A stretch of 64,000 nucleotides of DNA from Leptolyngbyaceae cyanobacterium (GTDB lineage Bacteria > Cyanobacteriota > Cyanobacteriia > Phormidesmidales > Phormidesmidaceae): contig CBDHHL010000056.1 in the NCBI GenBank assembly GCA_965263355.1, positions 1,888,001 through 1,952,000 of the forward strand, written 5' to 3'. Each line of letters opens with the position of its first letter. Positions within the stretch are counted from its first letter, which is position 1. Positions 62,632-64,000 of this stretch are shown piece after piece. The translations under genes and the position numbers were made by a program. The notes beneath the pieces are model-generated. The model saw nothing but the letters and a program-made list of their open reading frames with translations. It ran no database searches and was not told where the DNA came from.

Positions 62632-62897
62632 GCATGCCAAACTATTCAGATTGACCTCTTTATAGCTTGTTAACGTTGATCTCAAAAAACGACATGCGCG
62701 CTACATTTTATCGTGGGTGCTTCAGCTGCTCATAGCGCAGTGAAACGTCTACAGTAGTGAAAAAGCTGAGCGGTTCGATGGATTAACTTGGAATTTGGGA
62801 TAGCGCTTCGTAGTTTTTGAGATGTTTTGAGTATTCCGCATAGCCTACTCAGTGATTGACTCTTGGGTGCTCTGAAAGATCTCTAATGCCCACAGTC

Positions 62898-63116
62898 CTA
62901 GTCAGTCGAAGGATCATCGGCATAAATCATCAAATCACCAGGCTGACACCTTAACGCTTTGCACAACGCACTGAGCGTCTCAGCATCAATCCGACTTACC
63001 TGACGACGAACTTTCAACCTTGAAATTGAGCGCTCACTGATACCCGTGAGTGCGGCCAGATCCTTATTACGGACATTCCTTTCCGCCATGATGATTGCGA
63101 GTCGCCAATGGATCAC
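62898..63116 (-). CDS. XRE/Cro-C1 helix-turn-helix regulator
   Basis: KDLAALTGISERSISRL, TLSALCKALRCQPGDL. Confidence 0.9.
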   Translation of the reverse strand: MIHWRLAIIMAERNVRNKDLAALTGISERSISRLKVRRQVSRIDAETLSALCKALRCQPGDLMIYADDPSTD

Positions 63117-63247
63117 GTCTAGCGATTGATACGTATTGCCAAGCAGATGCTAGCACCAACCCACAGATGTAGTTCACAAATACAGCCTTGACATCTAAAA
63201 ATAGACGCTAGCAGTTGTTTTTACTCCTTTCAAAAGCTATAGTTACT

Positions 63248-63283
63248 AAAAATAAGCTGGCTTCCAACCAATGGAAGCCAGCT
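63248..63283 (-). terminator. intrinsic terminator for the tRNA transcript
   Basis: AGCTGGCTTCCA / TGGAAGCCAGCT 12-bp stem followed by TATTTTT on the minus strand. Confidence 0.75.
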
Positions 63284-63309
63284 AAAGGATAGTGCTTTGA
63301 TCATTTGAA

Positions 63310-63346
63310 CGGGACTGGCGCGATTCGAACGCGCGACCTACCGCTT
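63310..63346 (-). tRNA. 3' exon of an intron-containing tRNA, most likely tRNA-Arg(CCU); the 5' exon is beyond the window
   Basis: Minus strand AA GCGGT AGGTC GCGCG TTCGAAT CGCGC CAGTCCC G = positions 37-38, anticodon-stem 3' strand, variable loop, T arm, acceptor strand, discriminator. The anticodon itself is not visible. Confidence 0.85.
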
Positions 63347-64000
63347 CAGATTTGTGTGAGTTTCCCCACTCTCTGGACTATACCTTCACCTTGGGCAAAT
63401 GCCTTTAGGTGGTAGCCGTCTAGTCTCTACACCTTCTTAGCCATCGATGCTTAATCAACAGCACTCAGCCGTCAATTATTACATTGTCCACTTGACTGAG
63501 CTTGGCTCGGTATTGCCATGAAGTGTCGCTACTGCGGTCAGCTAACAACCAATCCAATGTTTTGCAATCGCTCTTGTGCAGCATCTTTTAACAATAAGAA
63601 AGTGCCGAAAAAACGCAAACAACAAAAGTACTGTAAACATTGTAGAGTCCCAGTCTTCGGTAGACGAACTACCTGTGATAACTGCAACCCATCGTATGTA
63701 GATTGGACGAAAGTTACCCTAGGAGAAGTTAAACAAAAAGCATCTTTTCAGTATTCTGCAAGAGTCAGACAGCTTGCTCGAAAGCTTTACCGTCAGTCAC
63801 ACAAACCACAAGAATGCCTAATTTGCAGCTACGACAAGCATTTTGAAGTTTGCCATAGACGAGCAATCAATGAGTTTCCTGATGATGCTTTCATCGCAGA
63901 AGTCAATGACTTAGACAATCTGGTTGCTCTTTGTCCCAATCACCATTGGGAACTTGACCACAATCACCTCACTTTTTAGGTTTCACCGACTTTGACTACA
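63347..64000 (-). ncRNA. group I self-splicing intron (5' end beyond the window)
   Basis: P3 GTAGTC/GGCTAC, P4 TCGGT/ACCGA, Q GGCAATACCGAGCCAAG, R GTAGAGACTA, S AAGGTATAGTCC (P7 GACTA/TAGTC), P8 CACCT/AGGTG, P9 GTGGG-GAAA-CTCAC, terminal G at 63347. Confidence 0.93.
63518..63979 (+). CDS. Zn-finger HNH endonuclease, putative homing endonuclease, antisense within the intron
   Basis: N-terminal Cys pairs (CRYC, CNRSC, CKHC, CDNC), then CLIC...EVCH...NDLDNLVALCPNHH. Confidence 0.88.
   Translation: MKCRYCGQLTTNPMFCNRSCAASFNNKKVPKKRKQQKYCKHCRVPVFGRRTTCDNCNPSYVDWTKVTLGEVKQKASFQYSARVRQLARKLYRQSHKPQECLICSYDKHFEVCHRRAINEFPDDAFIAEVNDLDNLVALCPNHHWELDHNHLTF

Follow-up and report, generated by a model that had tools for sequence, protein, structure and literature searches.

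The window analysed here, a stretch of 64,000 nucleotides from a Leptolyngbyaceae cyanobacterium, ends in the 3' two-thirds of a minus-strand tRNA-Arg(CCU) gene. The preferred reading, to which a probability of roughly 0.8 is assigned, is that this gene is split after anticodon position 36 by a self-splicing, IC3-type group I intron of the 'Arg.5Ug' class whose P5 loop holds an HNH homing endonuclease gene on the opposite strand, that the HNH family is specialised on tRNA-Arg(YCU), and that the intron-borne form is a free-standing, target-adjacent gene which took up residence in an intron located at its own target site.

Architecture of the split tRNA-Arg(CCU) gene

The features of the locus are listed in Table 1. 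The 3' exon comprises the 3' strand of the anticodon stem, the variable loop, the T arm, the 3' strand of the acceptor stem and the discriminator G, while CCA is not encoded; the initial annotation had placed its start at tRNA position 37, and this is confirmed. A group I ribozyme on the minus strand had likewise been proposed, and 63354-64000 of that strand indeed match the Rfam model RF00028 (Intron_gpI) over model positions 49-253 (25.4 bits, E-value 0.0014, 5' end cut by the window), with all of the described elements in their place. The score lies below the gathering score of 50 because of the 5' truncation and of an insert of 459 nt. The window ends in P3, and the P1, P2 and 5' exon of this allele lie past base 64000, so that the completeness of the intron rests on its relatives.

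The intron terminates in ...CAAAUCUG (...AAAUCUG) with omega-G at 63347, after which the exon continues with AAGCGG. This splice position agrees with the loose ends and joints at 63346/63347 that are seen in contigs of other samples, and the catalytic core is the stretch which such contigs retain. The long extension of P6, on the other hand, is missing from most ORF-less relatives, and in ORF-less contigs 63437-63501 is replaced by 7-17 letters. The terminator-like hairpin downstream of the tRNA has 12 pairs, 7 of them G-C, and is a single match where 1.3 are expected in shuffled sequence; a comparable hairpin follows the tRNA of the closest complete relative, Leptothoe kymatousa TAU-MAC 1615 (L006). 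ARAGORN in its default mode found no tRNA between 60000 and 64000, and split tRNA genes of this type, together with the genes antisense to them, escape standard annotation.

Table 1. Coordinates, strand and basis of the features of the tRNA-Arg(CCU) locus
Feature	Position	Strand	Basis
tRNA-Arg(CCU) 3' exon, tRNA nt 37-73	63310..63346	-	Sequence; matches the L001-L007 3' exons exactly or nearly so
Group I intron (IC3-like, 'Arg.5Ug'), P3 5' strand to omega-G	63347..64000	-	RF00028; rest beyond the end of the window
Intron 3' end: P9 hairpin with GAAA loop (63356-63369), short tail, omega-G 63347	63347..63369	-	Rfam alignment and pairing read from the sequence
Catalytic core: J6/7, P7, P3 3' strand, P8, P7 3' strand	63370..63436	-	Rfam alignment, model ~135-237
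P6 with long extension (~60 nt), fast-evolving	63437..63500	-	57-nt insert in Rfam alignment
P5 3' strand, J, P4 3' strand, start of P6	63501..63520	-	Sequence, Rfam alignment, P5-pairing computation
153-aa HNH gene in the P5 loop, antisense to the intron	63518..63979	+	ORF; P5-loop insertion in Rfam alignment
P3 5' strand, P4 5' strand, J4/5, P5 5' strand (RNA ...GUCGGUGAAACCUA)	63977..64000	-	Sequence and Rfam alignment
Intrinsic-terminator-like hairpin and T run, 26 nt past the tRNA 3' end	63283..63255	-	Consensus match only

Relatives supply the missing 5' part

The last 22 bases of the window are common to seven cyanobacterial contigs (L001-L007), and in all seven loci a 5' exon ending in CCU precedes the intron. 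In-silico splicing of L001-L007 yields a tRNA-Arg(cct) in 7/7 cases, and ARAGORN in its intron mode calls tRNA-Arg(cct) for L001-L007, L009 and L010, each with an intron that begins immediately behind the anticodon. The assignment to Arg(CCU), which had initially been based on the 3' exon, is thereby upheld. By eye, CCU|G and CGGG can be paired into a short P1 in the seven relatives, whose 5' exons all end in ...CCU. Across the wider set, ARAGORN's intron mode reports tRNA-Arg with an intron right after the anticodon for 7/7 ORF-less, 12/16 HNH-bearing and 5/5 LAGLIDADG-bearing genes; the other four HNH-bearing split genes are called as non-Arg, their exons being read as Arg(UCU) by eye only.

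ORF-less versions of the intron, a search for which had been suggested, are common among these close relatives (6/7). Two of them match RF00028 with 61.0 bits (L002) and 56.1 bits (L004). The scores of ORF-bearing relatives span 29.4 to 68.9 bits, with L037 at the upper end and six others at 32-42; the lowest score belongs to L006, which matches model positions 1-253 with an E-value of 2e-5.

The antisense HNH gene

In the protein of 153 amino acids, two Cys4 zinc ribbons at the N terminus are joined by a helical linker to an HNH nuclease domain at the C terminus. The initial annotation had described an HNH ORF with several zinc fingers in the P5 loop on the opposite strand; judged by its conservation, this antisense ORF is a real HNH gene under selection. 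L. kymatousa carries the same ORF at 90% identity; between the two genes dN/dS is 0.091, and 40 of the 57 differences fall on third codon positions. C103, H113, N130, N134, C139 and H143 are invariant in 30 sequences and C100, C112 and H142 nearly so. The presumed catalytic His, the Asn residues and the presumed metal-binding His, framed by the CxxC...CxxH zinc ligands, are assigned to these roles on the basis of the HNH motif. Intron-borne copies with as little as ~40% identity still have an intact, full-length ORF in which the catalytic and zinc residues are invariant, and in several copies a GGAG-type ribosome-binding site is suitably spaced. L009 has ATT in place of ATG.

The full set of relatives numbers roughly 700. 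A total of 92 relatives are found at E <= 0.001, most of which hold Pfam HNH_2 (PF13391) in their precomputed annotation; the window protein itself scores 20.5 bits against this family, whose cut-off is 21. It is also matched by phrog_8048, 'HNH endonuclease' (E 2.8e-5), and a search of NCBIfam gave no match. The predicted structure has a pLDDT of 90.1. VIA-align superimposes the model on VcaM4I (6yex, Z 5.5, 82 aligned residues, rmsd 4.8), the GVE2 HNH (5h0o, Z 5.2), the Gme nicking HNH (4h9d, Z 5.2), McrA (6ghc, Z 5.0) and I-HmuI (1u3e, Z 3.4); these Z values are middling, and all matches cover residues ~62-153. Foldseek returned nothing at E <= 0.001 with the model (best E 0.042), and a sequence search of the PDB gave only weak matches to the HNH motif (McrA 6ghc, E 0.042).

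The ends of the ORF and their predicted pairing in P5

The start and stop codons of the HNH gene are part of the P5 helix on the other strand. The ATG is complementary to the CAU (63518-63520) of the P5 3' strand, and the TAG stop to the UA of the P5 5' strand, CCUA. The boundaries of the insert inside P5 are exact and reproducible across loci. The closure of P5 was computed for 17 introns in which the ends of the ORF had been located by nhmmer anchors; the mean pairing energy is -17.6 kcal/mol for cognate ends and -10.6 for non-cognate partners, and in 12/17 introns the cognate pair is the best or second best. The ends of the window's ORF pair at -24.0 and rank 1/17.

Expression and proposed mechanism

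In the proposed mechanism, minus-strand transcription would give the tRNA precursor, from which the ribozyme, as its intact and conserved core suggests, would splice itself out. The 459-nt insert is computed to be kept out of the ribozyme's way because its two ends, which are the antisense of the first and last ORF codons, pair into a long extension of P5. The mRNA of the endonuclease would be made from the plus strand and from a promoter of its own. The zinc ribbons of the protein are expected to bind DNA, and the enzyme to nick or cut intron-less tRNA-Arg(CCU) genes near the anticodon region, whereupon repair off the intron-bearing copy would carry the intron and its gene into the cut allele. 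Such repair-driven copying of an intron into a cut allele is the textbook pathway of homing.

A convincing promoter for the ORF was not found, either in a -10 scan of 12 introns or in a consensus scan of 62800-64000. The -10 scan covered the antisense of P6 and used approximate position weights; with these the ORF strand scored above the RNA strand in 8/12 introns and surpassed shuffled sequences (p <= 0.05) in 3/12, and the p values were 0.38 for the window and 0.82 for L006. Good boxes of the -10 type on the ORF strand read TGATATAAT in L018, TGTTACAAT in L028 and TGCTAGAAT in L012. ORF-bearing introns mostly have a long P6, with the exception of L010, which combines an ORF with a short P6. 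The consensus scan produced one promoter-like site (63173-63202, plus strand), against 1.6 expected by chance, and this site is not relied upon. Across the RNA runs, among which none from the organism itself was found, the share of sampled words was at most 0.12. A contig of 572 bases from an RNA library covers 63407-63973 at ~93% identity; it is not taken as expression, since contigs show neither strand nor transcription nor splicing and the libraries may contain DNA.

Presence, absence and empty sites

The HNH gene shows the presence/absence pattern of a homing element, and identical tRNA-Arg(CCU) sites occur empty. Among eight near-identical tRNA-Arg loci, the window included, the ORF is present in two and absent from six. 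Contigs from three other samples join precisely across the ORF, and two of these samples also hold pieces of it; ORF-less and ORF-bearing introns with near-identical cores are found side by side within single samples. Of 401 cyanobacterial genomes that were sampled, 51 have the intron, of which 45 are ORF-less, one carries the HNH gene and five carry a LAGLIDADG gene, which lies on the sense strand in P6 of the same intron class. The two tRNA-Arg exons abut in at least 10 of the 401 genomes, and at one such empty site (G265) both exons are 100% identical to those of the ORF-less query gene L004, ARAGORN reporting a tRNA-Arg(cct). The LAGLIDADG gene, sense in P6, and the HNH gene, antisense in P5, provide a natural comparison of two solutions within one intron class.

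Intron-borne and free-standing relatives

In 20 of 80 metagenomic loci the gene resides in the P5 loop of tRNA-Arg(CCU/UCU) introns, and it is antisense in every case. Most other relatives are free-standing, many of them on phage contigs. Where the remaining 60 metagenomic loci have a tRNA within 150 nt, the nearest one is an intact tRNA-Arg(YCU) in 24/42, against a background of 31/184 tRNAs; for viral contigs the corresponding figures are 19/43 and 26/322. The neighbouring tRNA is of another kind in 18/42 free-standing metagenomic and 24/43 viral loci, and further free-standing loci have no tRNA within 150 nt, so that the link to tRNA-Arg is strong but not universal. A collection of annotated phages held only three distant matches, the best of which (39% identity) is in Erwinia phage Ep030, where the tRNA nearest to the HNH gene is a Gln 102 nt away.

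The proximity of free-standing relatives to intact tRNA-Arg(YCU) genes gives indirect support to the initial guess that the HNH protein targets the tRNA-Arg gene. Since free-standing members of the family also occur next to intact tRNA-Arg genes, for the most part on contigs of phages, the best reading of the intron-borne form is that of a target-adjacent gene that lodged in an intron at its own target. It is further proposed, with less than even confidence, that a single HNH lineage has moved between two lifestyles at one target, free-standing beside tRNA-Arg(YCU) in phage tRNA arrays and antisense within bacterial tRNA-Arg introns, where its first and last codons were recruited as the helix that closes P5. 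In an unconstrained tree intron-borne and free-standing genes are interleaved. Multiple independent invasions of introns were considered; a tree that groups all 21 intron-borne rows in one clade is not rejected by the AU test (p-AU 0.279), and one or several transitions may lie behind the present distribution.

Alternative explanations

The HNH protein might move only its own ORF into ORF-less introns, in which case the P5 loop region would be its target and the intron merely a safe harbour. Such a nuclease would find an abundant target in the ORF-less introns (45 compared with one that holds the HNH gene in the 401 genomes), the sharing of samples by both forms would suit it, and so would the exactness of the insert boundaries inside P5. 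Its free-standing relatives, however, adjoin tRNA-Arg(YCU) genes that are intact and intron-less, which argues for the tRNA gene and not the intron loop as the recognition element, and ORF-bearing introns usually differ in P6 as well, a difference that a simple move of the ORF would not yield. A move of the ORF on its own is considered unlikely.

The strength of purifying selection, although the classical homing cycle predicts decay at saturation, could also be understood if the gene were a resident past homing that is kept for another role, as a maturase-like folding aid or as a nuclease against foreign DNA that bears tRNA-Arg, for instance phage tRNA arrays. Relatives are frequent in such arrays, so that a nuclease directed at tRNA-Arg could cut phage DNA. 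A useful host gene would, however, hardly be as rare and patchy as this ORF (1/401 genomes, 2/8 close loci), the wide persistence of ORF-less introns of the same class implies that the ribozyme can do without this protein, and no defence-system context was seen next to the HNH gene; a retained role of this kind appears very improbable. Slightly less probable still is that the antisense ORF is silent, a promoterless gene trapped in the intron and heading for deletion. The lack of a clear promoter, the L009 copy without ATG and the abundance of ORF-less derivatives agree with such a fate, whereas the bias towards third-position differences and the low dN/dS between the window and L006, the intact intron-borne ORFs with their invariant residues and the well-placed ribosome-binding sites all speak against it.

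Relation to known systems

Bacterial tRNA-Arg(CCU) introns were reportedly first described by Reinhold-Hurek and Shub in 1992 and by Paquin et al. in 1999. 'Arg.5Ug' is one of four classical classes of bacterial tRNA introns, and split tRNA genes are most numerous per genome in cyanobacteria (Williams 2020, bioRxiv 10.1101/2020.01.27.920355). The window's intron agrees with this class in its host gene, its insertion right after the anticodon, omega-G and its small IC3-type core, and probably also in the U at -1, which its relatives have; it differs from the introns mapped in that study in holding a defined antisense HNH gene in P5. The initial annotation had regarded the mobile intron as probably undescribed. 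This does not hold for the intron class, and it may hold for the HNH gene and its orientation in 'Arg.5Ug', for which no description was found in print, with the proviso that Table 1, the figures and the supplements of Williams (2020) could not be read and may list long introns.

The gene of the cyanobacterial homing enzyme I-Ssp6803I lies on the sense strand. As summarised in the available part of a review, this enzyme belongs to the tRNA-fMet intron of Synechocystis PCC 6803, is of the PD-(D/E)xK type and is encoded in P1, the gene overlapping P1/P2 (Bonocora & Shub 2001 via Edgell 2011, PMC3073962). Both systems concern a cyanobacterial tRNA split in the anticodon loop and an endonuclease aimed at the intron-less anticodon region, which is the target of I-Ssp6803I and the probable one here. 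The window's protein, by motif and fold an HNH enzyme with zinc ribbons, differs from what that source describes in being encoded in P5, antisense and in tRNA-Arg; it would work alike without being a member of the same group.

Antisense homing genes had initially been thought to occur mainly in nuclear rDNA introns. I-DirII of Didymium is such a case, an antisense His-Cys box gene in nuclear rDNA that has a Pol II promoter and contains a spliceosomal intron, as far as the accessible text of Edgell (2011, PMC3073962) describes it. The consulted part of another report already presents a bottom-strand endonuclease gene, LAGLIDADG-like with an HNH-like tail, in the capsid intron of mycobacteriophage LittleE (Pope 2013, PMC3706429). 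In these two cases, so far as the sources extend, and in the window, an endonuclease gene inside a group I intron lies on the strand opposite to the host gene, which would imply that it needs a promoter of its own. Unlike the window's gene, I-DirII is eukaryotic and the LittleE gene lies within the gene for a phage protein; neither case concerns a tRNA, and the excerpts consulted describe no family-wide antisense rule.

T4 SegB is a free-standing GIY-YIG homing endonuclease of a phage tRNA cluster, an enzyme which recognises many tRNA genes by their T-psi-C element, according to the portion of the article consulted (Brok-Volchanskaya 2008, PMC2330249). The free-standing relatives of the window's gene share this layout in phage tRNA clusters, and differ from SegB as portrayed there in being HNH proteins that are found preferentially beside tRNA-Arg(YCU) and also inside introns. 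A free-standing endonuclease with its target at the intron site has been termed 'pre-adapted', and can become intron-borne via illegitimate recombination (Zeng 2009; Bonocora & Shub 2009; Loizos 1994, cited from the accessible part of Hausner 2014, PMC3984707). As in these models of collaborative homing and invasion, the HNH family shows both states around one target gene. Unlike the cases given in the part of the literature consulted, which are single phage loci in protein-coding genes, it does so with many copies of each kind, free-standing and intron-borne, that involve the tRNA genes of both phages and bacteria. A comparison by eye, of the Loizos type, of the exon junction with the intron sequence bordering the ORF showed no more than ~5 shared bases.

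Implications

On the current view, a mobile group I intron originates when a free-standing homing endonuclease gene enters an intron that already sits at the target site of the enzyme, and in the excerpts of the literature consulted the support for this consists of a few single phage loci. The HNH family presents both states many times around one small and universally conserved target, on phage contigs and in several bacterial lineages. Its strict design rule, by which the gene invariably lies antisense in P5 and has ends that double as ribozyme structure, was not found mentioned in searchable reviews. If the specificity for the tRNA-Arg anticodon region is confirmed, the enzyme of 153 amino acids would be a compact new sequence-specific nuclease. 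If a single lineage did move between the two lifestyles, the family would be a natural, many-membered record of a pre-adapted free-standing endonuclease invading an intron at its own target, and the antisense layout would be this family's own means of producing a protein from inside a tRNA precursor that is untranslated and tightly folded. As side effects of this arrangement, antisense pairing may couple the expression of the endonuclease to the maturation of tRNA-Arg(CCU), and the same long-range helix may mask the start codon in the mRNA.

A split tRNA-Arg gene with an antisense ORF

The minus strand of the window carries a group I intron (see the table) whose Rfam alignment covers P3, P4, P5, P6, P8 and P9 and has 459 nt inserted into the P5 loop. 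[quoted passage not shown] ARAGORN in default mode finds no tRNA at the locus, as would be expected given that the gene is split and also truncated. The ATG of the antisense ORF is the complement of CAU in the P5 3' strand and its TAG is the complement of UA in the P5 5' strand CCUA, so that the ORF fills the P5 loop exactly. The elements that the initial annotation had read from the sequence (group I core pairings, 3' exon and antisense ORF) are all present at the locus.

Coordinates of features in the window and in related loci
Feature	Locus	Position	Strand	Details
Group I intron (Rfam)	Window	63354 to window's last base	-	Model positions 49-253; 25.4 bits; E 0.0014; 5' end cut by window end
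P6 extension	Window	63437-63500		
ORF, 153 codons	Window	63518 to 63979	+	Antisense to intron
tRNA 3' exon	Window	63346 down to 63310	-	37 bases; tRNA positions 37-73
Terminator-like hairpin	Window	63283..63255	-	Downstream of tRNA 3' exon
HTH protein gene	Window	62898-63116	-	72 aa, Cro/C1-type; Pfam HTH_26, E 3e-19
Degenerate second 3' exon copy	L006	3695-3765		~25 extra bases in T-loop
ATT at expected ATG	L009	1501-1503		
Long insert, tRNA-Arg(CCU) intron class (example)	L170	97-1005		
Pistol ribozyme RF02679	L013; L090; L092	2208-2270; 2179-2241; 2207-2269	-	50-55 bits, above gathering score
Split tRNA-Leu(UAA)	L093	2086-2356	-	196-nt ORF-less group I intron

The missing 5' part can be read from relatives, since the last 22 bases of the window are present in seven cyanobacterial contigs (L001-L007), all Leptolyngbya-like and including Leptothoe kymatousa TAU-MAC 1615 (L006). 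All seven contain P2, P1 and a 37-nt tRNA 5' exon (ending ...CCUCCU) upstream of the equivalent intron core; joining their exons in silico gives tRNA-Arg(cct) in every case, and ARAGORN, run in its intron-tolerant mode, puts the intron immediately behind the anticodon. This gives good support to the Arg(CCU) call made earlier from the 3' exon, and the relatives indicate that the window's own allele would likewise be tRNA-Arg(CCU). Six of the seven introns have no ORF and are 200-269 nt long, two of them scoring above the Rfam gathering score (61.0 and 56.1 bits). The L006 intron is 685 nt long, matches the whole Rfam model (1-253, E 2e-5) and carries an antisense ORF with 90% amino-acid identity to that of the window.

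Directly downstream of the tRNA terminator the window encodes a small HTH protein, and in L006 the tRNA is also followed by a terminator and the same small HTH gene, showing that the neighbourhood is conserved. In L006 the tRNA-Arg gene is directly followed by a second, degenerate 3' exon; downstream of it comes a flank (GTTCAAAT) that matches the one beside the single copy in the window. The duplicate may have been left by an earlier repair or integration event.

An HNH protein under selection

The window protein has 92 relatives at E <= 0.001 (from 94 candidates), many of which are cyanobacterial proteins of 153-155 aa annotated at source as HNH endonuclease. An alignment of 30 sequences shows eight invariant N-terminal cysteines, forming two Cys4 ribbons, and the invariant C-terminal residues C103, H113, N130, N134, C139 and H143. 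In the AlphaFold model built from the alignment (mean pLDDT 90.1), residues ~62-153 align with HNH nucleases at middling Z-scores: VcaM4I (5.5), the phage GVE2 HNH (5.2), the Gme nicking HNH (5.2), McrA (5.0) and I-HmuI (3.4). A Foldseek search with the model gave no match at E <= 0.001, NCBIfam holds no model matching the protein, and the Pfam HNH_2 score is half a bit under the cut-off; PHROGs assigns it to phrog_8048 'HNH endonuclease' (E 2.8e-5). Taken together, motif, fold and family annotation allow a safe assignment to HNH; solved or characterised proteins are absent among the close relatives. Of the 57 nucleotide differences between the ORFs of the window and L006, 40 fall at third codon positions and dN/dS is 0.091, compared to 1.0-3.0 in four of five control frames; the fifth (0.11) is antisense and shares its third positions with the ORF. 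The ORF can safely be regarded as a real, selected HNH gene.

The closest metagenomic ORF after L006, in locus L009 (76% identity), also lies in a tRNA-Arg(CCU) intron. It has ATT at the expected ATG, and the sequence immediately before it offers no ATG, GTG or TTG in frame, which represents either a rare start codon or a first step of decay.

Placement in P5 and the ends of the ORF

A scan of metagenome contigs returned at least 499 relatives of the HNH ORF, of which the best 80 loci were examined with nhmmer profiles of the two intron halves, derived from cyanobacterial genes and iterated three times. Both halves flank the ORF in 19 loci and the 3' half alone in a twentieth that reaches a contig end, placing the ORF within an Arg-type intron in 20 of the 80 loci (18 distinct). 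In all 20 the intron and the ORF are on opposite strands, with the ORF between the P5 strands; no ORF in sense orientation within an intron was found among the 80 loci. Six of ten such loci tested match the full Rfam model and accommodate the ORF as an insert of the P5 loop (68.9 bits in L037). The exons identify the host genes as tRNA-Arg(CCU) or tRNA-Arg(UCU), in agreement with ARAGORN for 12 of 16 complete genes; its calls differ for L012, L018, L035 and L058, where Arg(UCU) is read by eye only.

The ends of the ORF appear to serve the ribozyme structure. The two ends of the insert (its first 24 nt with the P5 flank, and its last 24 nt) were folded against each other for 17 distinct introns with the ORF: cognate ends gave a mean of -17.6 kcal/mol vs -10.6 for non-cognate ends; the cognate partner ranked first or second in 12 of 17, and the pair of the window is the strongest of all (-24.0 kcal/mol). 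According to these computations the complements of the ORF's first and last codons would form a long P5 extension which closes off the insert. The mRNA has equal complementarity, and one may speculate that its start codon is masked by it.

Most ORF-bearing introns also have a long P6 extension: P6 measures 54-76 nt in nine of the 11 that are reliably delimited (25 nt in L010, 34 nt in L058) and 25 nt in five of the seven ORF-less cyanobacterial relatives (41 nt in L007, 89 nt in L002). A promoter function of this extension is not supported: a promoter scan of its antisense strand was mixed overall and negative in the window and L006. L010 combines the ORF with a short P6, and the extension evolves fast, being poorly conserved between the window and L006 though the ORF DNA is ~88% identical. 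In several family members the ORF is preceded by a GGAG-type ribosome-binding site, or its ATG abuts the P4/P5 core. Both splicing of the intron and a plus-strand transcript are predicted from sequence.

Patchy occurrence and a second type of endonuclease

In a sample of 401 cyanobacterial genomes spread evenly over the phylum, a homologue of the HNH ORF occurs in one, and the intron, searched with the DNA of an ORF-less tRNA-Arg gene (E <= 1e-20, intron sequence required), in 51. The match is contiguous and full-length in 29 of these and split by short divergent middles in 16, one is L006's own, and five have inserts of ~700-870 nt. Exons abut, leaving the site empty, in at least ten genomes; in one (G265) both are 100% identical to the query and ARAGORN reads tRNA-Arg(cct), and thus identical empty target sites exist. 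Contigs of four public runs were also compared with the window: three samples have ORF-less forms in which 63436 is joined to ~63500 and ~63520 to 63976, separated by just 7-25 other letters. Two of these samples, X4 and X5, also contain pieces of the ORF at a lower depth, and one such piece from X4 (163 bases) shows a single difference. This patchy distribution of the ORF is the pattern expected for a homing-endonuclease gene.

The five long inserts (L170-L174, from G163, G267, G365, G299 and G191) lie in the same tRNA-Arg(CCU) intron class, and each encodes a LAGLIDADG_2 protein of ~215-250 aa (Pfam E 9e-39 to 1.7e-25 in the three proteins tested). In contrast to the HNH gene, antisense in P5, all five LAGLIDADG genes are located in the P6 region on the tRNA strand, and they represent an alternative homing gene in another loop. 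An antisense position thus belongs to the HNH family and is not imposed by the tRNA intron.

Free-standing relatives beside tRNA-Arg genes

Most other relatives are free-standing, many of them beside tRNA-Arg genes. A tRNA gene is found within 150 nt of the ORF in 42 of the 60 metagenomic loci outside Arg-type introns, the other 18 having none. The neighbour is an intact tRNA-Arg in 24 of the 42 (UCU in 14, CCU in 10), against a background of only 31 tRNA-Arg(UCU) and tRNA-Arg(CCU) genes among the 184 tRNAs in those loci; it is on the opposite strand in 18 and on the same strand in six, and the 3' end of opposite-strand neighbours is often overlapped by the ORF stop. Likewise, among 81 viral loci examined from 227 relatives in IMG/VR, tRNA-Arg(YCU) is the neighbour in 19 of the 43 with a tRNA within 150 nt vs 26 of 322 tRNAs overall. 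It is this neighbourhood preference that points to the anticodon region of intron-less tRNA-Arg genes as the likely target, which the protein is predicted to cleave.

The remaining 18 of the 42 metagenomic loci adjoin tRNAs other than Arg(YCU). The next-commonest viral neighbours are tRNA(CAU) (10), tRNA-Ile(UAU) (3) and tRNA-Leu(UAA) (2), with 4, 2 and 0 cases respectively in metagenomic loci. tRNA(CAU) (fMet, Ile2) and tRNA-Leu(UAA) are other tRNAs that host group I introns, and these neighbours hint at sub-lineages retargeted to other tRNA genes.

In a quick maximum-likelihood tree of 150 members, the 21 intron-borne genes all fall within one well-supported half (SH-aLRT 96), where free-standing tRNA-Arg neighbours are interspersed among them. 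A single clade of intron-borne genes is not rejected (AU test, p 0.279), so that one switch or several between the free-standing and intron-borne states may have occurred.

Three phage-like contigs (L013, L090 and L092) have a Pistol ribozyme ~180 nt upstream of an intact tRNA-Arg(UCU); a free-standing HNH relative ends there, its stop codon overlapping the 3' end of the tRNA. Viral contig L093, where such a relative adjoins tRNA-Arg(UCU), has a split tRNA-Leu(UAA) (ARAGORN intron mode and nhmmer match) ~60 nt upstream of the tRNA-Arg.

Relation to known systems

The intron class is classical: 'Arg.5Ug' is one of four classical bacterial tRNA intron classes and belongs to subgroup IC3, and the survey which describes 5292 split tRNA genes, commonest in cyanobacteria, remarks on coding content solely that long introns may contain genes (Williams 2020, bioRxiv 10.1101/2020.01.27.920355). 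Homing endonucleases in introns are textbook knowledge. A review of group I introns in bacteria covers intronless homing, collaborative homing and invasion by endonuclease genes, and uses none of the terms antisense, opposite strand or opposite orientation (Hausner 2014, PMC3984707). In a further article, antisense is mentioned only for I-DirII of Didymium, and the tabulated tRNA-intron enzyme is I-Ssp6803I, a PD-(D/E)xK protein in P1 (Edgell 2011, PMC3073962). Opposite-strand orientation as such has precedent, as the capsid intron of mycobacteriophage LittleE is described with an endonuclease gene on the bottom strand (Pope 2013, PMC3706429). T4 SegB is a characterised free-standing GIY-YIG endonuclease in a phage tRNA cluster which recognises a conserved tRNA element (Brok-Volchanskaya 2008, PMC2330249).

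In the full-text literature searched, largely outside subscription journals, neither an HNH gene in a tRNA-Arg intron nor the tie of the HNH family to tRNA-Arg genes was found described. Apparently new, in the sense of not found described, are the tRNA-Arg-linked HNH family with its strict antisense placement in P5, the apparent use of coding ends as ribozyme structure, and the twin free-standing life beside tRNA-Arg genes on phage contigs. This family-wide pattern of antisense placement in P5, coding ends and a free-standing twin bears directly on how mobile introns are assembled.
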